DNA from: Escherichia phage vB_Eco_NicPhage
Sequence record: OY726582
Strand: one strand, 5' to 3'
DNA: 64,000 bases
The notes under the pieces are model-generated. The model searched no databases, was not told the DNA's origin, and worked only from the letters and a program-made list of their open reading frames with translations. The position numbers were made by a program, and so were the translations under genes. Below, piece after piece: positions 3,182 to 55,745 of this stretch. Every line of letters begins with the position of its first letter. Positions within the stretch are counted from its first letter, which is position 1.

Positions 3182-4054
3182 ATGGCATTTTTTAAGCAAA
3201 CTCCTAAACAATTAATCGATACCGGCGAAATTGGTAATGCCTCAACAGGTGATATCTTATTCGACGGTGGTAATAAAATAAATGACGATATCAACGCTAT
3301 TTACAATGCATTTGGCGATCAACGTAAAATGGCCGTAGCAGATGGAACCGGACCTACAGGTCAAACTATTCATGCCACAGGTTATTATCAAAAAGGAAAG
3401 GCGATCGATTATCAAACTCCTATTAAACCCGGCACCATGCATGATATTGATGCTTCTGATGGCGGTGTGATTGTTATTATTGACCGTCCTGAATTAGGTG
3501 ATTCTGTAGAATTCATAAACTCTAATGGGTCTATTTCTGTTAACAATCCTTTAAGTATCCAAGTAACCGATGGTTCAATTAAAGGTGTTCTTAATAATCT
3601 TGTTATTTCCACCCCTTATACCCATGTTGTTCTTCGTTGTGTTGAACTTAACGGGCCAACTTCAGTATGGAATTATTCTACTGATAGCATGTTTGGGCAG
3701 AAAGAATCTCCTGTCGATGGGACTTGGAGTCTTACAGGAAACTCAGTTTCTATTCCTCTGTTTTATCGCACAGATTATAATATGGCTAAATTGCTTGTTA
3801 CATGCCAATCCGCCGACGGTAGAAAAATAAAAACATGCGAAATAAATATTCTAATAGATACAATTAACTCAGAAGTTCTTTCTACTGAATTTGCAGTAAT
3901 GCGAGTTGGTAATGTAGATGAAACCGACGAGATTGCTAATATTAGCTTTAGTATTATTAACAACTTTGCTACTATGACGATTACATCCGATATTATTGGA
4001 TTACGTTCAGCAGTTAAAATTATCTCAACTCAGAAAATTGGGGTCGCTCAATAA
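3182..4054 (+). CDS. 9: Baseplate wedge protein gp9 (long tail fiber socket)
   Basis: 290 aa; N-terminal LIDTGEIGNASTGDILFDGGNKIN and C-terminal KIGVAQ recognised as T4 gp9-like; late promoter TATAAATA 33 nt upstream. Confidence 0.9.
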   Translation: MAFFKQTPKQLIDTGEIGNASTGDILFDGGNKINDDINAIYNAFGDQRKMAVADGTGPTGQTIHATGYYQKGKAIDYQTPIKPGTMHDIDASDGGVIVIIDRPELGDSVEFINSNGSISVNNPLSIQVTDGSIKGVLNNLVISTPYTHVVLRCVELNGPTSVWNYSTDSMFGQKESPVDGTWSLTGNSVSIPLFYRTDYNMAKLLVTCQSADGRKIKTCEINILIDTINSEVLSTEFAVMRVGNVDETDEIANISFSIINNFATMTITSDIIGLRSAVKIISTQKIGVAQ

Positions 4055-5859
4055 TGAAACAAAATATTAAAATTGGTAACGTCGTTGATGACGGACAAGG
4101 CGATTACCTTCGTCGAGGTGGTGAAAAAATAAATGAGAACTTTGACGAAATCTATTATGAATTAGGTGATGGTGAAGTTCCTTATGCCGCTGGCGCATGG
4201 AAGACTTATGATGCGGCTGATGGTCTTAATCTTAAGGCCGCTTGGGGTAAATCTTATGCAATTAATACTACTTCTGGGCGAGTTTCGGTAAATCTTCCTA
4301 AAGGTACAATTGCAGACTATAATAAAGTTATTCGTGCTCGTGACGTATTTGCAACTTGGAACATTAACCCTGTTACTTTAATTCCGGCAAACGGAGACAC
4401 GATTAAAGGTTCTTCATCTCCAGTAGAAATTAACGTTCAGTTCTCTGATTTAGAATTAGTTTATTGTGCTCCTGGACGTTGGGAATACATCAAGAACAAA
4501 CAAATTGATAAAATAGTTAGCTCTGACATTAGTAATGTTGCTCGTAGAGAATATCTGGTTGAAACCCAAGGTCAGACCGATTTCATGGATGTTTTTAACG
4601 GGACCTCTTATAACGTTAACAACATTCGCGTAAAACATCGTGGCAACGAATTATATTATGGTGATGTGTTCAGTGATAATAGTGATTTTGGTTCTCCTGG
4701 TGCTAATCCTGGTGAACTGGTTGCACTTGATGGATTTAATATTAGATTACGCCAACCATGTAATGTTGGGGACACTGTACAAATTGAGACATTCCTAGAT
4801 GGTGTTTCTCAGTGGCGTAGTTCATATACTCGTCGCCAAGTTCGCATTTTAGATAGTAAATTGACTGCTAAAAAGTCTATTGACGGAAGTATTTACGTCA
4901 CTGATTTGAGTACGTTCCGGTCTATTCCATTTACAGCATTTGGTATTAATCCTACAGAACCACCTAACCCGAATTCATTAGAAGTTCGCTTCAATGGTAT
5001 TCTCCAAGAATTAGCTGGTACTGTTGGAACTCCTATTTTCCGTTGTGAAGGTGTGGATGCTGATTCTGAAGAGTCATGCGCTAATCTCGGTGGGACATGG
5101 ACTCAATCGTATACAGATTATGCGATTGAATATACTGATAATATCCCTAGCGCAATTCTGTTTGACCGTCAATTTGAAGACCAAGACATTATTACCATCA
5201 CATGGTTTAATAACGATTTAGGAACTCTTCTTGAAATGGAAGAAATTCTTGATGTCGCTGATGAGAAATATGTTTCTCAAGGGTCTAACATTGAAATTAC
5301 TGGTGACGTTGCATTAACCGATTTCGATAAAATTGGATGGCCTAATGTAGAACCTGTTCCTAAGTATGAACGTGAATTCTCGACTATCTCAGCAATATTT
5401 GATACAATTTATCCTGTCGGGACTATTTACGAAAATGCGGTTAACCCTAATAATCCGGCCACTTATTTAGGTTTTGGTTCATGGAAAATTTGGGGACAAG
5501 GCAAAGTATTAGCAGGTTGGAATGACGACGCGTCGGATCCTAATTTTGCATTAAATAATAATGACCTTGACGTCAATGGTAACCCTACTCATACTGCAGG
5601 TGGTACCGTTGGTGTAACAACCATCACATTAGAAAATGCTGATTTACCAGCTACACAAACCGATGAAAAGGTTCTTATTTCTGATGATAATGGTACAGTA
5701 ATTATAGGCGGTTGCCAATACGACCCGGATGAAGAAGGTCCTATTTACACTAAATATCGTGAAGACCATGCAAAGACTAATGAATCTCATGTTCCAGCGC
5801 GTTCTATAACTAATATTCAGCCATCTATAACTGTATACCGTTGGGTAAGGATTGCATAA
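4054..5859 (+). CDS. 10: Baseplate wedge protein gp10
   Basis: 601 aa (T4 602); start overlaps gp9 stop; sequence colinear with remembered T4 gp10 ([13 protein letters not shown]...YRWVRIA). Confidence 0.9.
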
Positions 5860-21652: not shown

Positions 21653-23221
21653 ATGACTACTATCAAAACTAAAGCTCAGCTCGTAGACAAATGGAAAGAA
21701 CTGCTGGAAGGTGAAGGCCTGCCGGAAATCGCTAATAGCAAGCAGGCTATTATCGCTAAAATCTTCGAAAACCAGGAAAAAGATTTCGAAGTATCCCCTG
21801 AATATAAAGACGAGAAAATCGCTCAGGCATTTGGTTCTTTCTTGACCGAAGCTGAAATTGGTGGTGACCATGGTTATAATGCTCAGAACATCGCAGCAGG
21901 TCAAACCTCTGGTGCAGTAACCCAAATTGGGCCGGCAGTTATGGGTATGGTTCGTCGTGCTATTCCTAATCTAATCGCTTTTGATATTTGTGGTGTTCAG
22001 CCTATGAACAGCCCGACCGGTCAGGTATTTGCTCTCCGTGCAGTATATGGTAAAGACCCTATCGCTGCTGGCGCTAAAGAAGCTTTCCATCCGATGTATG
22101 CCCCAGACGCGATGTTCTCTGGTCAGGGTGCTGCTAAGAAATTCCCAGCTCTGGCTGCTGACACTACTACTGTTGTAGGTGATATCTATACTCACTTCTT
22201 CCAAGAAACTGGTACTGTATATCTGCAAGCTTCTGCTGTCGTAACACTTGATTCTGGTGCAACTGATGCAGCTAAATTAGATGCAGAAGTTAAGAAACAA
22301 ATGGAAGCTGGTGCACTGGTAGAAATCGCTGAAGGTATGGCTACTTCTATCGCTGAACTCCAGGAAGGTTTCAACGGTTCTACCGATAACCCATGGAATG
22401 AAATGGGCTTCCGTATCGATAAACAAGTTATCGAAGCTAAATCTCGCCAGCTGAAAGCTGCTTACTCTATCGAATTAGCACAAGACCTCCGTGCAGTACA
22501 CGGTATGGATGCTGATGCTGAACTGAGCGGTATTCTGGCTACAGAAATTATGCTAGAAATCAACCGTGAAGTTGTTGATTGGATTAACTACTCAGCACAG
22601 GTTGGTAAATCTGGTATGACCCTGACTCCGGGTTCTAAAGCTGGTGTATTTGACTTCCAGGACCCGATTGATATCCGTGGTGCTCGTTGGGCCGGTGAAA
22701 GCTTTAAATCTCTGTTGTTCCAGATTGATAAAGAAGCAGTTGAAATTGCTCGTCAAACCGGTCGTGGTGAAGGTAACTTCATTATCGCTTCCCGTAACGT
22801 AGTTAACGTACTGGCTTCAGTTGATACTGGTATTTCTTACGCTGCACAGGGCCTGGCTTCTGGTTTTAATACCGACACTACTAAGTCTGTATTTGCCGGT
22901 GTACTTGGTGGTAAATACCGCGTATACATCGACCAGTATGCTAAACAGGATTACTTCACCGTTGGTTACAAAGGCGCTAACGAAATGGATGCAGGTATTT
23001 ACTATGCTCCTTACGTTGCACTTACCCCGCTGCGTGGTTCCGATCCTAAGAACTTCCAGCCGGTAATGGGCTTTAAAACTCGTTACGGTATCGGTGTTAA
23101 CCCGTTTGCTGAAAGTTCCCTGCAGGCTCCAGGTGCTCGCATCCAGTCCGGTATGCCATCTATCCTGAACAGCCTTGGTAAGAACGCTTACTTCCGCCGT
23201 GTATATGTAAAAGGCATCTAA
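21653..23221 (+). CDS. 23: Major capsid protein gp23
   Basis: 522 aa; near-identical over long stretches to remembered T4 gp23 (e.g. GDHGYNA.NIAAGQTSGAVTQIGPAVMGMVRRAIPNLIAFDICGVQPMNSPTGQVFALRAVYGKDP); late promoter inside gene 22 at 21509-21516; strong terminator downstream. Confidence 0.97.
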   Translation: MTTIKTKAQLVDKWKELLEGEGLPEIANSKQAIIAKIFENQEKDFEVSPEYKDEKIAQAFGSFLTEAEIGGDHGYNAQNIAAGQTSGAVTQIGPAVMGMVRRAIPNLIAFDICGVQPMNSPTGQVFALRAVYGKDPIAAGAKEAFHPMYAPDAMFSGQGAAKKFPALAADTTTVVGDIYTHFFQETGTVYLQASAVVTLDSGATDAAKLDAEVKKQMEAGALVEIAEGMATSIAELQEGFNGSTDNPWNEMGFRIDKQVIEAKSRQLKAAYSIELAQDLRAVHGMDADAELSGILATEIMLEINREVVDWINYSAQVGKSGMTLTPGSKAGVFDFQDPIDIRGARWAGESFKSLLFQIDKEAVEIARQTGRGEGNFIIASRNVVNVLASVDTGISYAAQGLASGFNTDTTKSVFAGVLGGKYRVYIDQYAKQDYFTVGYKGANEMDAGIYYAPYVALTPLRGSDPKNFQPVMGFKTRYGIGVNPFAESSLQAPGARIQSGMPSILNSLGKNAYFRRVYVKGI

Positions 23222-23245
23222 TCTTAATTGATTAAATCTTATTTT

Positions 23246-23270
23246 GGGAGACTTCGGTCTCCCATTTTTG
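23246..23270 (+). terminator. Intrinsic terminator after gene 23 (GGGAGAC-UUCG-GUCUCCC + AUUUUUGG)
   Basis: Perfect 7-bp stem with UUCG tetraloop followed by U-tract, 25 nt after the gp23 stop. Confidence 0.8.
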
Positions 23271-23273
23271 GTT

Positions 23274-23543
23274 TTATTTCTGTGCAATTTCGATGTAAGT
23301 TTTCAAAATATTTTGCCAATTAGGCATACCTTCTTGGACATATGCCGGAGAACCATCTTTGTTTTTGAATGATGCAAGTTTATCAGTGGCCCAATAACCT
23401 TTAGCTCGAGCTTCAGAATCAACTTTCATCCATACTTTGTTGAAGGCATTACCATTAACTTTTGCACCATATTTTTCTACTAACTTAACTGCTTCAGCTT
23501 CCAGAACTTTTAAAGTATCTCGTAAGAAACGTGCTTTAGTCAT
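23274..23543 (-). CDS. Hypothetical early protein (89 aa) between gp23 and gp24, opposite strand
   Basis: ORF preceded on the minus strand by TTTACA-N17-TACTAT early-promoter-like element (23574-23602); no recognisable motif; occupies the position where T4 carries a seg endonuclease gene. Confidence 0.5.
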   Translation of the reverse strand: MTKARFLRDTLKVLEAEAVKLVEKYGAKVNGNAFNKVWMKVDSEARAKGYWATDKLASFKNKDGSPAYVQEGMPNWQNILKTYIEIAQK

Positions 23544-23573
23544 TTTGTTTACTCCTCTGTAGTTGATAAGTCT

Positions 23574-23602
23574 ATAGTATCACATACTAAATACGTTGTA
23601 AA
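23574..23602 (-). promoter_or_regulatory. Early (sigma70-type) promoter TTTACA-N17-TACTAT for the 89-aa ORF
   Basis: Minus strand reads gattgTTTACA-17 nt-TACTAT; divergent from the gene 24 late promoter. Confidence 0.5.
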
Positions 23603-23609
23603 CAATCTT

Positions 23610-23617
23610 TATAAATA
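23610..23617 (+). promoter_or_regulatory. Late promoter TATAAATA upstream of gene 24
   Basis: Exact TATAAATA 28 nt upstream of the gp24 ATG. Confidence 0.6.
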
Positions 23618-23644: not shown

Positions 23645-24928
23645 ATGAGTAAAATCCAAAAATTATTGCGTGAATCTACAACGTCTACTAGCAACTCAAT
23701 TGGTCGCCCAAATCTCGTTGCTTTGACTCGCGCTACGACTAAATTAGTATATTCTGACATTGTAGCAACACAAAGAACTAATCAACCTGTTGCTGCTTTT
23801 TATGGTATCAAATATCTTAACCCAGATAATGAATTTACATTTAAAACTGGTGCTACTTATGCTGGCGAAGTTGGATATGTAGACCGAGAAAAAATTACTG
23901 AACTCACAGAAGAATCAAAAGTCACACTAAATAAAGGTGATTTTTTCAAATATAATAATATCGTCTATAAAGTGTTAGAAGATACACCATTTGCAGATAT
24001 TCAAGAAAGTGATCTAGAATTAGCTCTTCAGATTGCAGTCGTTCATTTAAAGGTACGGTTATTTTCAGATGCAGCGGTAACAAGCAAATTTGAAAGCTCT
24101 GATAGCGAAATTTCTGATGCAAGATTCCAGATTAATAAATGGCAAACTTCAGTCAAATCTCGTAAACTTAAAACTGGCCTCACGGTTGAATTAGCGCAAG
24201 ATTTGGAAGCGAATGGATTTGATGCCCCTAACTTCTTAGAAGATTTGCTTGCTACTGAAATGGCTGATGAAATTAATAAAGATATTCTTCAGTCTTTAAT
24301 TACTGTATCGAAACGTTATAAAGTTACTGGAATTACTGACACCGGATTTATTGACTTGAGCTATGCATCCGCTCCAGAAGCAGGTCGTTCATTATATCGA
24401 ATGGTGTGTGAAATGGTATCACACATTCAAAAAGAGACAACTTATACTGCAACGTTTTGTGTAGCCTCAGCTCGTGCAGCTGCTATTCTTGCTGCTTCTG
24501 GTTGGTTAAAACATAAGCCAGAAGATGACAAGTATCTTTCACAAAATGCTTATGGATTCTTGGCAAATGGATTACCTCTTTACTGCGATACCAACAGTCC
24601 GTTAGATTATGTTATTGTGGGTGTTGTAGAAAATATCGGCGAAAAAGAAATTGTAGGGTCCATCTTTTATGCTCCATACACTGAAGGAGTAGATTTAGAT
24701 GACCCGGAACATGTCGGTGCATTTAAAGTTGTAGTTGATCCGGAAAGTTTGCAACCGTCTATCGGATTATTGGTTAGATATGCTTTATCAGCAAATCCTT
24801 ACACAGTAGCAAAAGACGAAAAAGAAGCGAGAATAATTGATGGTGGGGACATGGATAAAATGGCAGGACGTTCAGACTTGTCTGTTTTACTCGGTGTTAA
24901 ATTGCCTAAAATTATTATAGATGAATAA
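23645..24928 (+). CDS. 24: Capsid vertex protein gp24
   Basis: 427 aa, identical to T4 gp24 length; colinear with remembered T4 gp24; late promoter at 23610-23617. Confidence 0.95.
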   Translation: MSKIQKLLRESTTSTSNSIGRPNLVALTRATTKLVYSDIVATQRTNQPVAAFYGIKYLNPDNEFTFKTGATYAGEVGYVDREKITELTEESKVTLNKGDFFKYNNIVYKVLEDTPFADIQESDLELALQIAVVHLKVRLFSDAAVTSKFESSDSEISDARFQINKWQTSVKSRKLKTGLTVELAQDLEANGFDAPNFLEDLLATEMADEINKDILQSLITVSKRYKVTGITDTGFIDLSYASAPEAGRSLYRMVCEMVSHIQKETTYTATFCVASARAAAILAASGWLKHKPEDDKYLSQNAYGFLANGLPLYCDTNSPLDYVIVGVVENIGEKEIVGSIFYAPYTEGVDLDDPEHVGAFKVVVDPESLQPSIGLLVRYALSANPYTVAKDEKEARIIDGGDMDKMAGRSDLSVLLGVKLPKIIIDE

Positions 24929-26331: not shown

Positions 26332-26528
26332 TTCTTCACCTTTTTGTTAATCAAACGTTTACGGTATACAACTTTTTCTTTTGCTTTAAACTTTGACCGA
26401 GCTGTCTCGGCTTTAGTCCATAGTAATCCAACTTCTTTAGGTTGTAAACCAATTTTTTGAGCAATTTCTACGAATGAAAATCCCGCCTCATGTAATGTAT
26501 AAACTTCAACTTCAGCTCTCATAATCAA
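26328..26528 (-). CDS. Small helix-turn-helix-like protein (66 aa) with basic C-terminus
   Basis: Segment SFVEIAQKIGLQPKEVGLLWTKA resembles an HTH DNA-binding motif; C-terminal KFKAKEKVVYRKRLINKKVKK is strongly basic. Confidence 0.5.
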   Translation of the reverse strand: MIMRAEVEVYTLHEAGFSFVEIAQKIGLQPKEVGLLWTKAETARSKFKAKEKVVYRKRLINKKVKK

Positions 26529-33007: not shown

Positions 33008-33019
33008 TATTTATAAATA
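33008..33019. promoter_or_regulatory. Overlapping divergent late promoters (TATTTATAAATA) for gene 26 (minus) and gene 51 (plus)
   Basis: 12-nt sequence tatttataaata contains TATAAATA on the plus strand (33012-33019) and its reverse complement on the minus strand (33008-33015), between the divergent gp26 and gp51 start codons. Confidence 0.55.
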
Positions 33020-39643: not shown

Positions 39644-39672
39644 ATAGTATCACACATCCGTGTGTTTGTAAA
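39644..39672 (-). promoter_or_regulatory. Early promoter TTTACA-N17-TACTAT upstream of the alt-downstream small gene
   Basis: Minus strand reads TTTACA-aacacacggatgtgtga-TACTAT; spacer contains inverted repeat ACACA...TGTGT. Confidence 0.5.
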
Positions 39673-41760
39673 CTATCCTTGGACAAATTTAAACGGAACT
39701 GATTCTAAATCCATTAAAGATGCTAACAATTTCAAACCTTTAGGTGCACTAGTTTTTTCTACAAATGAGGCAAAAGATACCGGCTCATCTGATTCGATTT
39801 CACCCGTCATAGCAACTACCTCGCCTGTTTCCATGAGAACATCACCATCGTAAATGACAGCTTCGTCCAACTGGTCCGAGGACATGACTTCAGCTTGAAT
39901 AAATTTAAGGTTGGATTCTAAACCTGCACCAGTGTCAGATGACGCATCTGTAATTTTATTTATCTGCAAGAGAATGCCTCTAGGCAAAATAATTTCTTGC
40001 TCATTAGGGTGATTACTCAACTGTCCGGGATAAATCACGTTAACTTTATGAGCGCCATCAATAGCCCATCCAACATTAACACGAATTTGTTCTGGCGCAT
40101 GCATAGCGGTACGTGCCAGGCTAGGAGAAATAGTAACACCTTCGTCATTATTGTCAATGTTAAGCTCTTTGCGAACTTCTTCAGGAGCAAGTCCAAGGGC
40201 AACGTTCTCTTTAAACCCACCAAAAATAATAGGAGCTAATGAAGTAGAAACATAGTTTCTGAAGTAGAATACCTTATTTTTAACCATTGCTTCGTAAATA
40301 GGCATTCTGATAGACTGGGCTCTATACAACGTTAGTCCTTCAGGTAAACGGTCTCCATTTAAAAACGCCGAATCAAGACCATCAATAGCGCGTTTAACTT
40401 CATCTTCATCTGCAACATCATAAAAATCCGGTTTATAACGGCCTAACAACATATTATTGATATCGGTATACGCAGAAGAGGCATATTCGCGAATAGCTCG
40501 TTTTTCAGCAACAGAGTATTGTTTAGGGTCCCGATTCATTGTTATATTAAAGGTGCCTCTAGCCGATTCTCGTGCATAAGTATACATCACATTAGACAAG
40601 AACGCTGATTTACGTTGTTTCCAAGTTTTTTCAGATACTTCAGCTAAAACATCGTCGGCCAGTTGGAAATTATCACGTCTAAAATCTTCAAACCATTCGT
40701 CTTTAATAGAGTCCGCAATTTCGTTTGCAGCTTCAACAAAAGCAGCTAATGCTTTAACAGATGTTGTTTTTTCAGTTTTAATTTTCTTAGCAAACTTTTC
40801 TAAAGTTGGCTTAATAACACTACCATAAGAAACTTCATCAGCAAATCTAAAGGATTCATCAATACGATTATAAATCTTATTTTCGATATCAGCAACTAAA
40901 GTGCCTTTTGCTGTGGATGATGCTTGGGCTAGTACGATTTCATATGCTTCAGGAAGTAATTCGGCTGTAGCCGGGCCACTAACTTCTTTAGCAGAATTTT
41001 CGTATTTCTGGAATAACTCACCTTCTTGGCGGTCAGCTTCTAAAGATTGGCTTGCGGCAATAGCACGACGAGAAATTTTAGTACGAGCAATAACAGGCTT
41101 ATCTTTACGTTTTTCTTCTACAGCAGCAATAGAACCAGCGATAGCCGTTTCTTTGGTGACTTTTTCGCCGGTCTTTTTACTCACATAAACTTCGCCAACA
41201 TCAGAATCTACTTTCGTGTACAACTCTGTGTTAATGTTAGGGATGCCTTTAATATCTTCAATGTTGGCATTTTTACGAACCATCATCACATAGGTGTGTT
41301 TACCTGTGAATTGATACATTGCCGACAATACTTTAAAACGACCACCGGTTTTAGTAGAAACTAAACGAGCAAGAAGAGTTTGAAGCTGTTGTCCACGTCC
41401 TTTCAATTTCTTGGTAGGGAATCGGAACAGAACTGCATCCATACGAAGAGCTTTAACCTGTTCATATACCGTATTGAAAATGGTGTTGATTGCATCAATA
41501 GGAGCAGGACCAAGGCCATTTTTCAATTCAGCGAGATTACCCTTTTCAGACAGACTCATAATAACAACATGAGCGTATTTGTCGCCAAGTTTAACTTGTT
41601 TTACAGCATCGCCTTCAGAAAGGTAAGAGAATAAGCGAACTACGATGTTTGTATCGATATCACCAATTTTCCAGACTTGTGGAACTTTAGCTTTAGGGTT
41701 CAAATTGACGACAGGAAGACTGCCTTCAGATTCAAACACTTCATTTAATTGTTCAGACAT
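39673..41760 (-). CDS. alt: ADP-ribosyltransferase Alt (virion-packaged, modifies host RNA polymerase)
   Basis: 695 aa (T4 682); position between gene 54 and DNA ligase gene 30 as in T4. Confidence 0.8.
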   Translation of the reverse strand: MSEQLNEVFESEGSLPVVNLNPKAKVPQVWKIGDIDTNIVVRLFSYLSEGDAVKQVKLGDKYAHVVIMSLSEKGNLAELKNGLGPAPIDAINTIFNTVYEQVKALRMDAVLFRFPTKKLKGRGQQLQTLLARLVSTKTGGRFKVLSAMYQFTGKHTYVMMVRKNANIEDIKGIPNINTELYTKVDSDVGEVYVSKKTGEKVTKETAIAGSIAAVEEKRKDKPVIARTKISRRAIAASQSLEADRQEGELFQKYENSAKEVSGPATAELLPEAYEIVLAQASSTAKGTLVADIENKIYNRIDESFRFADEVSYGSVIKPTLEKFAKKIKTEKTTSVKALAAFVEAANEIADSIKDEWFEDFRRDNFQLADDVLAEVSEKTWKQRKSAFLSNVMYTYARESARGTFNITMNRDPKQYSVAEKRAIREYASSAYTDINNMLLGRYKPDFYDVADEDEVKRAIDGLDSAFLNGDRLPEGLTLYRAQSIRMPIYEAMVKNKVFYFRNYVSTSLAPIIFGGFKENVALGLAPEEVRKELNIDNNDEGVTISPSLARTAMHAPEQIRVNVGWAIDGAHKVNVIYPGQLSNHPNEQEIILPRGILLQINKITDASSDTGAGLESNLKFIQAEVMSSDQLDEAVIYDGDVLMETGEVVAMTGEIESDEPVSFASFVEKTSAPKGLKLLASLMDLESVPFKFVQG

Positions 41761-50589: not shown

Positions 50590-50618
50590 ATAGTATCACA
50601 ACTCCACCACGTTGTAAA
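50590..50618 (-). promoter_or_regulatory. Early promoter TTTACA-N17-TACTAT for ORF 50325..50561
   Basis: Minus strand reads ggTTTACAacgtggtggagttgtgaTACTATaac. Confidence 0.5.
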
Positions 50619-50621
50619 CCA

Positions 50622-52716: not shown

Positions 52717-52745
52717 ATTATACTCTGCTCCTGAGAGTTTGTAAA
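52717..52745 (-). promoter_or_regulatory. Early promoter TTTACA-N17-TATAAT for ORF 52389..52688
   Basis: Minus strand reads agTTTACAaactctcaggagcagagTATAATg. Confidence 0.5.
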
Positions 52746-52970
52746 CTATTTTACTAAAGATTCAATATACTCGTGAAGAGCTTTAGTCGCTACTGCCCAC
52801 TTATTCTGATATTCATTTTTCAGATTAGCACGAGACTGAACTAACAATCGGTCATTAGTCGGAGGCAAAGATTCTAATCGTTGAATCTGGCGCCCATAAA
52901 TCATAGCCGCCATTTCAGATTCATAGATAAGCCCTTTAATGTATTCATGCTGTTCTTTAGTCATTGGCAT
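52746..52970 (-). CDS. Hypothetical protein (74 aa)
   Basis: ORF overlapping the lipoprotein gene stop. Confidence 0.4.
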   Translation of the reverse strand: MPMTKEQHEYIKGLIYESEMAAMIYGRQIQRLESLPPTNDRLLVQSRANLKNEYQNKWAVATKALHEYIESLVK

Positions 52971-54121: not shown

Positions 54122-54150
54122 ATAGTATCACCATCCTTGGTGTTTGTAAA
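54122..54150 (-). promoter_or_regulatory. Early promoter TTTACA-N17-TACTAT for the alc-like gene
   Basis: Minus strand reads ggTTTACAaacaccaaggatggtgaTACTATggg; spacer contains inverted repeat CACCA...TGGTG. Confidence 0.5.
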
Positions 54151-54153
54151 CCG

Positions 54154-55305: not shown

Positions 55306-55334
55306 ATTGTACCACAATCCTTGTGGTATGTAAA
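55306..55334 (-). promoter_or_regulatory. Early promoter TTTACA-N17-TACAAT for rnlA
   Basis: Minus strand reads agTTTACAtaccacaaggattgtggTACAAT; spacer contains inverted repeat CCACAA...TTGTGG. Confidence 0.5.
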
Positions 55335-55745
55335 CTACTTTTTCTTATGTTGGATATTCCAAGGCGGGTTGAACTTTTTGATAAAAAGTGGTTCTTCAAG
55401 GTCCATTGTTGCGATGGTCATTGAACCAAGTTCGTTGGTGACTGAAAGGTCAAAACATTGGCGGGCCCAGAATTCAACCTTTTTGCCTTGCATTAAGGCA
55501 TCCAAAATCATAAGTGATTTTCTTGAATCTGAAGTCTGGTCTTTTCGATTTATGGCTGTTCGATAATAGTTAATGCGTTTCTTTAAATTCTTGGTTTTAC
55601 CAATATACACGAGTTCGTCATCTATAGCAATAGCATATATGACATTTTTCTTATTAGGGACATCAACTGTTTTAATTGTTGCATCTTCTAATAGCTCCAA
55701 TTCTGTATATTTAATAAAGGAATATTCGGCGGCGATATCTTTCAT
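55335..55745 (-). CDS. denA: Endonuclease II
   Basis: 136 aa, identical to T4 DenA length; near-identical to remembered T4 sequence (..YSFIKYTELEL...VYIGKTKNL.KRINYYRTAINRKD...FNPPWNIQHKKK). Confidence 0.9.
   Translation of the reverse strand: MKDIAAEYSFIKYTELELLEDATIKTVDVPNKKNVIYAIAIDDELVYIGKTKNLKKRINYYRTAINRKDQTSDSRKSLMILDALMQGKKVEFWARQCFDLSVTNELGSMTIATMDLEEPLFIKKFNPPWNIQHKKK

Follow-up and report, generated by a model that had tools for sequence, protein, structure and literature searches.

The window analysed here, a stretch of 64,000 nucleotides from Escherichia phage vB_Eco_NicPhage (OY726582), comes from a Mosigvirus, a T4-like coliphage of the Straboviridae (Tevenvirinae). The region under study is at least 99% identical to that of more than 120 deposited genomes of Escherichia and Shigella phages of the genus Mosigvirus. 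Its genes are arranged in the order portal, gp67, gp68, gp21, gp22, gp23, a small reverse ORF, gp24 and rnlB, the last of these on the reverse strand. In the ORF list, gp23 occupies positions 21653-23221 and gp24 positions 23645-24928, both on the plus strand, and the gap between the end of gp23 (23221) and the start of gp24 (23645) measures 423 nt, 270 nt of which are taken up by the reverse ORF. This 89-codon minus-strand ORF, which the initial annotation had placed amid the two plus-strand genes, is indeed present at 23274..23543, TAA stop included, with an ATG start; its assignment draws on the sequence, on a match to the profile PHROG 6003 and on syntenic homologues. No paralogue was found within the window, and the "second places" reported by megablast for the region correspond to similar terminators and early promoters elsewhere rather than to paralogues.

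On its left side, the ORF borders the intrinsic terminator of gene 23 (23245..23264, plus strand), which was located by hairpin scan and folding and constitutes the 3' boundary of the cassette. The terminator reads TGGGAGAC-UUCG-GUCUCCCA, an 8-bp GC-rich stem with a UUCG loop, and has a folding energy of -14.8 kcal/mol on the plus strand (z = -4.4). It is followed by a T tract, TTTTTGGTTT, at 23265..23274 (plus strand), whose last base overlaps the stop codon of the 89-aa ORF. The distance of 3 nt between ORF and hairpin given previously must therefore be corrected: stop and stem are 9 nt apart. The minus-strand version of the same hairpin also forms, at -13.5 kcal/mol, and has no U tract after it; the 3' end of an early transcript is consequently uncertain, and some antisense read-through into gene 23 is possible. 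On the right side, the T4-type late motif TATAAATA, assigned as the late promoter of gene 24, is located at 23610..23617 on the plus strand, 27 nt ahead of the gp24 start. The motif was counted 18 times against 7.9 expected, mainly on the plus strand, and is absent from the minus strand of the gp23-gp24 gap. Only 6 nt separate it from the -35 element of a divergent early promoter, and the back-to-back arrangement described earlier is thereby confirmed.

This early promoter lies on the minus strand. Its -35 element, GTTTACA, is found at 23597..23603 (TTTACA at 23602-23597, G at 23603) and is of the T4 early type. The -10 element, TACTAT (23579-23574), together with an extended TG (23582-23581), occupies 23574..23582, as identified from sequence and conservation. 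The two hexamers are 17 nt apart and the TG is placed one base 5' of the -10, giving the form GTTTACA-N17-TGaTACTAT. A Shine-Dalgarno sequence, GAGGAG, is located at 23552..23557 on the minus strand, 8 nt before the ATG, and forms part of a leader motif (ATCAAC.ACA.GAGGA) that is common to other early genes in the window. The consensus of T4 early promoters in Miller et al. 2003 reportedly consists of a GTTTAC -35 and a TAnnAT -10 about 17 nt apart, with an extended TG and an AT-rich upstream region. The promoter of the 89-aa ORF agrees with a T4-type early (sigma-70) promoter in its hexamers, its spacing and its TG, as well as in the conservation of the hexamers rather than of the spacer.

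A loose consensus scan yielded four promoter-like sites against 3.8 expected, which is chance level, so that a bare hexamer match proves nothing in this case. For the specific pattern GTTTAC-N18-TANNAT, in turn, 0.27 sites would be expected in the 64-kb window; there are seven, every one of them on the minus strand. Six of them have an ATG 27-30 nt past the -10, and four share the leader ATCAAC or ACCAAC, in the form ATCAAC(A/T)ACA.GAGGA. As judged by these common features, the seven GTTTAC sites are a family of putative early promoter and leader modules, of which the site at 23574-23603 is a typical member. An alignment of gap sequences from Mosigvirus, Gaprivervirus VR20, Dhakavirus WG01 and 04086, and two metagenomic T4-like phages showed that the complement of the late promoter, the -35 and the -10 are all retained. 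Across six lineages (Mosigvirus, Gaprivervirus, Dhakavirus, the two metagenomic phages and T4 segD), both hexamers persist, in contrast to the 17-nt spacer, which is nearly randomised; the -35 reads TTTACA in five lineages, T4 segD included, and TGTACA in one. The sigma70-type promoter TTTACA-N17-TACTAT proposed for the ORF thus stands, as one of seven strand-specific sites and with conserved hexamers.

The promoter of T4 segD, composed of tatttataaagttATTTACA, 17 nt and TGaTATTAT with about 30 nt to the ATG, is arranged as in the 89-aa ORF. In time-resolved T4 omics, segD is classified as "early RNA, middle protein" (PMC9697503, supplementary files 4 and 6). By promoter type, and by analogy with segD, which occupies the same slot behind a corresponding promoter, the 89-aa ORF is very likely transcribed early, in agreement with its first description as an early gene. 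Our literature search found no published transcriptome of a Mosigvirus or a Dhakavirus.

The ORF is widely conserved among T4-like phages. A tblastn search with the 89-aa protein returned 239 phage records, about 120 of which are at least 90% identical, all those listed or inspected being Mosigviruses. Another 119 records are less than 60% identical, and those inspected belong to Gaprivervirus and Dhakavirus, with the ORF on the opposite strand between gp23 and gp24. Synteny therefore extends over Mosigvirus, Dhakavirus and Gaprivervirus at 30-38% identity, and it is also retained in metagenomic homologues at 62% and 70% identity. The dN/dS of the ORF is 0.14 between the window and L006, a metagenomic phage, 0.12 between VR20 and WG01, and 0.14 between WG01 and 04086, a pair whose dS of 0.32 is unsaturated; for comparison, the values range over 0.06-0.16 for gp24 and 0.05-0.20 for gp23. 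Between genera, the 89-aa protein diverges much faster than its neighbours, with 30-37% identity versus 70% for gp24 and 84% for gp23. Across 14 diverse members, the length of the ORF varies from 84 to 93 aa, and residues M1, K3, F6, G31, N32, N35 and Q70 are invariant. Because it is under purifying selection (dN/dS 0.12-0.14), we are practically certain that the 89-aa ORF is a genuine protein-coding gene. A lack of coding constraint had been named at the outset as an observation that would count against the locus; the constraint is there, together with synteny in three genera.

The encoded protein is soluble and basic, contains neither a hydrophobic segment nor cysteines, and has a pI of 9.6; in 13 of the 14 family members, the pI falls between 9.2 and 9.9. 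AlphaFold2, run on the 14-sequence alignment, predicts a fold with helices at residues 3-25, 31-48 and 76-88 and a beta-hairpin at 56-70 (pLDDT 89, pTM 0.76), and this fold recurs in a BFVD model predicted independently for a homologue of 31% identity (TM 0.77). The match to PHROG 6003, a family of unknown function, is full-length (E = 2.1e-45, residues 1-89 against profile positions 1-90 of 90). The initial annotation could place no motif in the protein, and neither profile nor structure-prediction searches provided a functional lead at the level of sequence, profile or fold. PADLOC and NCBIfam profiles gave noise only, Foldseek found no match below E = 0.4 in the PDB, and none of the 14 members had a Pfam match to GIY-YIG or another nuclease motif. 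The protein shows no similarity to SegD and is much shorter (89 aa versus 223 aa). No match to a characterised anti-defence protein was obtained in PDB, BFVD, Pfam, NCBIfam or PADLOC, nor is there a strongly acidic surface of the kind found in DNA mimics of the Ocr/Arn type; with a pI of 9.6, the protein is basic and hence not a DNA mimic. Two weak matches were discarded. Pfam DUF4859 scored 17.9 bits against a cut-off of 22.6, appeared in two of the 14 members and was treated as chance. The RFC1 BRCT domain, the one weak match in PDB sequence searches, gave E = 0.076 with the single sequence and 0.93 with the family profile, and the predicted three helices and hairpin do not fit it.

A HMMER search against 1.84 billion cluster representatives returned nine proteins, seven of which are family members or carriers of a fragment. 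Among the matches, P0019 is a shortened copy of a family protein. P0020, a 160-aa ENA protein, matches one of the two alleles described below (allele B) in its C-terminal part and looks unrelated in the rest, and was read as a chimeric metagenomic call. P0022 (1347 aa) and P0024 (3916 aa) are Big_2 and filamin Ig-repeat proteins in which many weak repeat matches were summed, and their matches are artefacts given that both proteins are all-beta. Two genuine family members are distant. The first sits in an array of small genes on a contig related to the Vequintavirinae phage ABPH49. The second follows directly after the tail-tip genes of a siphovirus contig, with a terminator, a TTGACG-17-TATATT promoter and a hairpin on its flanks; of the promoter-like and hairpin sites near these two genes, those of the siphovirus contig are the clearest. 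Since the HMMER search recovered this family only, and two distant members lie beyond the T4-like phages, the family appears to be mobile between unrelated lineages, and as far as these searches reach it is rare and restricted to phages.

The content of the gp23-gp24 gap was sampled across the Straboviridae. T4 and T6 carry segD on the minus strand, Acinetobacter phage 133 a large endonuclease on the minus strand, Slopekvirus an endonuclease on the plus strand, and Krischvirus about 720 nt with two tiny plus-strand ORFs. The gap is empty, at 81-100 nt, in RB51, Karamvirus, Jiaodavirus and Kagamiyamavirus, and these four empty gaps hold a hairpin and a late-promoter motif alone: the loop is UUCG and the motif TATAAATA in three of the four, and Karamvirus has UUGC and GATAAATA, respectively. 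None of the four contains a minus-strand GTTTAC promoter, which implies that the early promoter comes with the cargo. The statement in the initial annotation that T4 carries a seg endonuclease gene at this site is correct, as T4 segD lies on the same strand in the same gap. The description of the gap as a landing site is likewise borne out by this sampling of presence and absence across T4-like genomes, the content being different from lineage to lineage.

Exchange of the cargo can be followed in individual genomes. In the Mosigvirus LF82-4, identity to the window is 97.7% through gp23 as far as about position 23277, where the ORF stops; beyond position 23552, which lies 9 nt upstream of the ATG, it is 94.9%. 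The left recombination breakpoint thus falls at the gene 23 terminator and ORF stop, and the right one 9 nt upstream of the ATG. Between them, LF82-4 carries a Dhakavirus-type allele (allele B) that is 33% identical to the allele of the window (allele A), and 3 nt past it a GIY-YIG endonuclease of 219 aa with 57% identity to T4 SegD. The tandem of allele B and SegD-like gene is also present in Dhakavirus 04086, and in 38 records overall. Other records, the Dhakaviruses JS98, JS10 and WG01 included, match the allele B part of LF82 only, at about 87-95% nucleotide identity, and these copies are far closer to the LF82 copy than the backbones of their phages are to one another. The metagenomic phage L006 represents a further combination: its gp23 and gp24 are of the Gaprivervirus type (92% identical to VR20), and its ORF is of the allele A type, 62% identical to the window and 29% to VR20. 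Read from these junctions, the moving module is the segment from the ribosome-binding site to the stop codon, with the promoter and the terminator as putative homology arms. For allele B, co-conversion driven by the endonuclease is a plausible vehicle. Most genomes with the ORF have no endonuclease, and T4 and T6 have segD without the ORF; the two genes are accordingly independent of each other. At 33% identity, alleles A and B need not share a function.

Two records bear on whether the gene can be lost. In the RB69 reference record, the ORF is annotated as two fragments, ORF188c and ORF189c, and the copy contains a divergent nine-codon patch with an extra A, plus a 1-nt deletion further along; in the copy of phage mogra, a T run has lost 1 nt. 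In both records, three frames jointly still spell the protein, and for this reason the frameshifts may be sequencing errors rather than signs of pseudogenes, a possibility that weakens the argument for dispensability. We nevertheless consider it likely that the 89-aa ORF is a dispensable accessory gene.

The gene is not new to the databases. More than 200 phage genomes on deposit already list it as a "hypothetical protein", and the identical 89-aa sequence is deposited on 262 contigs; the ORF is, therefore, less novel than first implied. Literature searches with accession numbers, locus tags and peptide strings found no publication on it, and the ORF188c mentioned in PMC1524935 refers to 44RRORF188c and RB49ORF188c, not to the RB69 ORF. 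The gene was not included in the early-protein screen of Mosigvirus AV110, which took only proteins with T4 homologues and so excluded it; the supplements of two accessory-gene screens do not list it either.

Taken together, the reading that we hold to be probable on balance is that the 89-aa ORF is a real, monocistronic, early-transcribed accessory cassette in a recombination hot spot between genes 23 and 24. During the first minutes after infection, host sigma-70 RNA polymerase would initiate at GTTTACA-N17-TGaTACTAT and transcribe about 300 nt leftwards, producing a monocistronic mRNA. This early RNA would end at or near the hairpin that doubles as the gene 23 terminator, or be stabilised by it. 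Binding is the most likely mode of action for a protein that lacks any catalytic motif, and the partner, engaged in stoichiometric amounts, may be a host or phage macromolecule, either a nucleic acid or an acidic protein surface. Rather than serving a core function, the protein probably contributes to fitness under certain conditions. What lies between promoter and terminator is exchangeable cargo, the states being nothing, segD, allele A (as here), allele B, and allele B with a SegD-like homing endonuclease, and exchange would proceed by recombination in the conserved promoter and terminator arms, probably aided by the endonuclease. The initial annotation was in this respect half right: the evidence partly supports it, namely in the early and accessory nature of the gene.

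Several other explanations were weighed against this cassette reading. That the ORF might be a chance product of an AT-rich intergenic spacer is suggested by the composition of the genome, which at 38% G+C has frequent short ORFs on either strand, and by the generic promoter scan that did no better than chance; yet a chance ORF would not be expected to show a dN/dS of 0.12-0.14, a frame that three genera and unrelated phage families retain at 30% identity, a confident fold prediction and a strand-specific promoter family. The conservation analysis already refutes this interpretation, as read from the sequences, and we assign it a negligible probability. It is also conceivable, if very improbable, that the RNA or the promoter matters and not the protein, either as an antisense RNA to the 3' end of gene 23 or through modulation of the gene 24 late promoter. 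Such roles would make use of the divergent early and late promoters only 6 nt apart and of the hairpin without a minus-strand U tract, which could allow antisense read-through of gene 23. However, selection acts on the protein, whose predicted fold is conserved at 31% identity; the T4-like genera with empty gaps, which have no minus-strand promoter, still express genes 23 and 24; and the cargo can be replaced by an unrelated endonuclease gene.

The remaining alternatives concern the function of the protein. One alternative, which we regard as possible but doubtful, is a counter-defence or host-takeover effector: soon after infection, the protein would bind a component of host immunity, or a factor essential to the host, and neutralise it, with the two alleles directed at different targets. 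The early promoter would suit such a role, as would a small, non-enzymatic and fast-evolving product (30-37% identity between genera versus 70% for gp24 and 84% for gp23), horizontal mobility among unrelated virulent phages, two deeply diverged alleles exchanged between backbones, and a possibly dispensable gene. According to Silas et al. (bioRxiv 10.1101/2023.04.06.535777), genes that are small, early, fast-evolving, mobile and dispensable display the usual hallmarks of phage accessory genes; these hallmarks, however, are common to many accessory genes with other roles. In addition, the protein has no homology or fold similarity to characterised anti-defence proteins, it is basic and hence no DNA mimic, recent pairs are under purifying rather than positive selection, and the gene is missing from both accessory-gene screens and from the AV110 early-protein toxicity screen. 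The role in anti-defence or takeover that had been suggested therefore finds no lead in sequence, profile or fold searches and fits in its general profile only. A bolder version, in which the family would be a new class of early effectors with an undescribed small fold that disables a component of host immunity or housekeeping, with different specificities for A and B and the SegD-type endonuclease as the vehicle, seems unlikely to us. We are equally sceptical of a small nucleic-acid binder, such as a winged-helix-like regulator or an RNA/DNA chaperone, perhaps tied to the SegD-like endonuclease. A basic pI conserved throughout the family, the helix-helix-beta-hairpin-helix layout and an apparent operon in 38 genomes, with the GIY-YIG endonuclease 3 nt after the ORF, are consistent with it, and the top Foldseek matches in the PDB, far from significant, are mostly winged-helix proteins (DnaD-N, ORC2, Cdt1, MarR-like). 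These matches, on the other hand, have E above 0.4 and TM of 0.2-0.3, the helices are much longer than those of a helix-turn-helix, no HTH match was found in Pfam, and the ORF mostly occurs without the endonuclease, just as segD of T4 and T6 occurs without the ORF.

If a function were found, it would add another small early protein to the set that T4-like phages use against their hosts. The accessory cassette also offers a very clean natural case of modular exchange in a slot of about 420 nt within the conserved capsid module: one and the same slot is empty or holds a homing endonuclease, either ORF allele, or the ORF with an endonuclease, and the breakpoints can be mapped to regulatory elements. 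As the gene is present in often-used Mosigviruses of the BASEL collection, for example AlbertHofmann and ChristianSchoenbein, deletion and allele-swap experiments should be easy.

Among known systems, the PeSL (promoter-early stem-loop) ORFan cassettes of the T4-type phages RB49 and phi1 invite comparison (Arbiol et al. 2010, PMC2839356; Comeau et al. 2014, PMC4122927). PeSLs are composite elements in which a stem-loop is directly followed by a promoter, and they are repeated in arrays within hyperplastic regions (PMC2839356; PMC4122927). The cassette resembles them in its small ORF of unknown function, in the strong sigma-70-type early promoter that belongs to this ORF and has an AT-rich region upstream, and in its boundary at a terminator stem-loop. 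It also shares with them regulatory elements that are conserved while the intervening cargo is inserted, deleted or replaced, and recombination breakpoints at the promoter and stem-loop. Unlike in a PeSL, promoter and stem-loop flank a single ORF on opposite sides: the element upstream of the early promoter of the 89-aa ORF is the gene 24 late promoter and not a stem-loop, and the stem-loop, at the 3' end of the ORF, is the terminator of gene 23. The site, moreover, lies inside the conserved capsid module.

Another parallel is T4 segD, which agrees with the cassette in place and strand and likewise has a (G/A)TTTACA-N17-TA.TAT promoter, set back to back against the late promoter of gene 24, and a UUCG hairpin as its boundary; in 38 genomes, a SegD-like gene (57% identical to T4 SegD) stands directly downstream of a member of the ORF family. 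The difference lies in the product, since the 89-aa protein has no GIY-YIG domain: what the slot carries here is cargo other than an endonuclease. PHROG 6003 and the GenBank entries APCEc01_119, MAR005P1_00055, WG01 ORF178 and VR20 gp246 belong to the same family, and no function is given for any member.

Morons are classically genes of temperate phages, expressed from the prophage. The cassette is similar to them in that one gene, equipped with a promoter and a hairpin of its own, stands amid genes belonging to another transcription class, and the homologue in the siphovirus contig (L010) even shows the classic layout of terminator, promoter, gene and hairpin. In contrast to morons, the 89-aa ORF is found in strictly virulent phages and its predicted expression is early lytic. 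The 89-aa cassette is, in this comparison, an ordinary member of a well-known kind of phage element, and what it adds is the clean exchange of its cargo.

In L006, a metagenomic T4-like phage, gp23 and gp24 are 92% identical to those of Gaprivervirus VR20, whereas the ORF between them (4001-4273) is of the Mosigvirus type, with 62% identity to the ORF in the window and 29% to that of VR20. This mismatch between ORF and flanks is an allele swap in the gp23-gp24 slot, the second one and independent of the first. The Dhakavirus-type allele of the ORF family (allele B) is followed after 3 nt by a SegD-like GIY-YIG homing endonuclease, with 57% identity to T4 SegD, in 38 phage records, including Mosigvirus LF82-4 (L022 1564-2493) and Dhakavirus 04086 (L004 3501-4442). 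In the latter record, the endonuclease, of 223 aa, lacks annotation.

Two annotated fragments of the ORF-family gene are found in the records of both RB69 (L011, NC_004928, 5292-5532) and phage mogra (L005 2501-2769), a split caused by 1-nt indels; the RB69 copy additionally carries a divergent nine-codon patch. In both copies the combined frames still encode the full protein, so these are either errors of sequencing or pseudogenes that arose very recently.

Besides the promoter of the 89-aa ORF, six GTTTACA-N17-TA..AT early promoters occur in the window, all on the minus strand (26420-26449, 39644-39673, 50590-50619, 52717-52746, 54122-54151 and 55306-55335). An ATG lies 27-29 nt past the -10 element in five of these six, and the leader A(T/C)CAACAA..GAGGA is common to the ORF's promoter and three of them. 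As a group, these sites resemble a promoter-plus-leader module that recurs in this phage. Elsewhere in the window, two overlapping copies of the TATAAATA motif occur on opposite strands (33008-33015, minus; 33012-33019, plus), and this pair at 33008-33019 suggests divergent late promoters.

The gp23-gp24 gap of the RB49-like Krischvirus Ec_Makalu_002 (L020 461-1182) spans approximately 720 nt and contains two hairpins; its only annotated ORFs are two tiny plus-strand ones of 45 and 50 aa, and the gap may be what is left of an insert that has decayed. Two gp24 (capsid vertex) paralogues stand in tandem in Gaprivervirus, Dhakavirus and the related metagenomic phage (L002 830-3394, L003 836-3399 and L006 1337-3901). 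T4 and the Mosigvirus of the window each have a single gp24.
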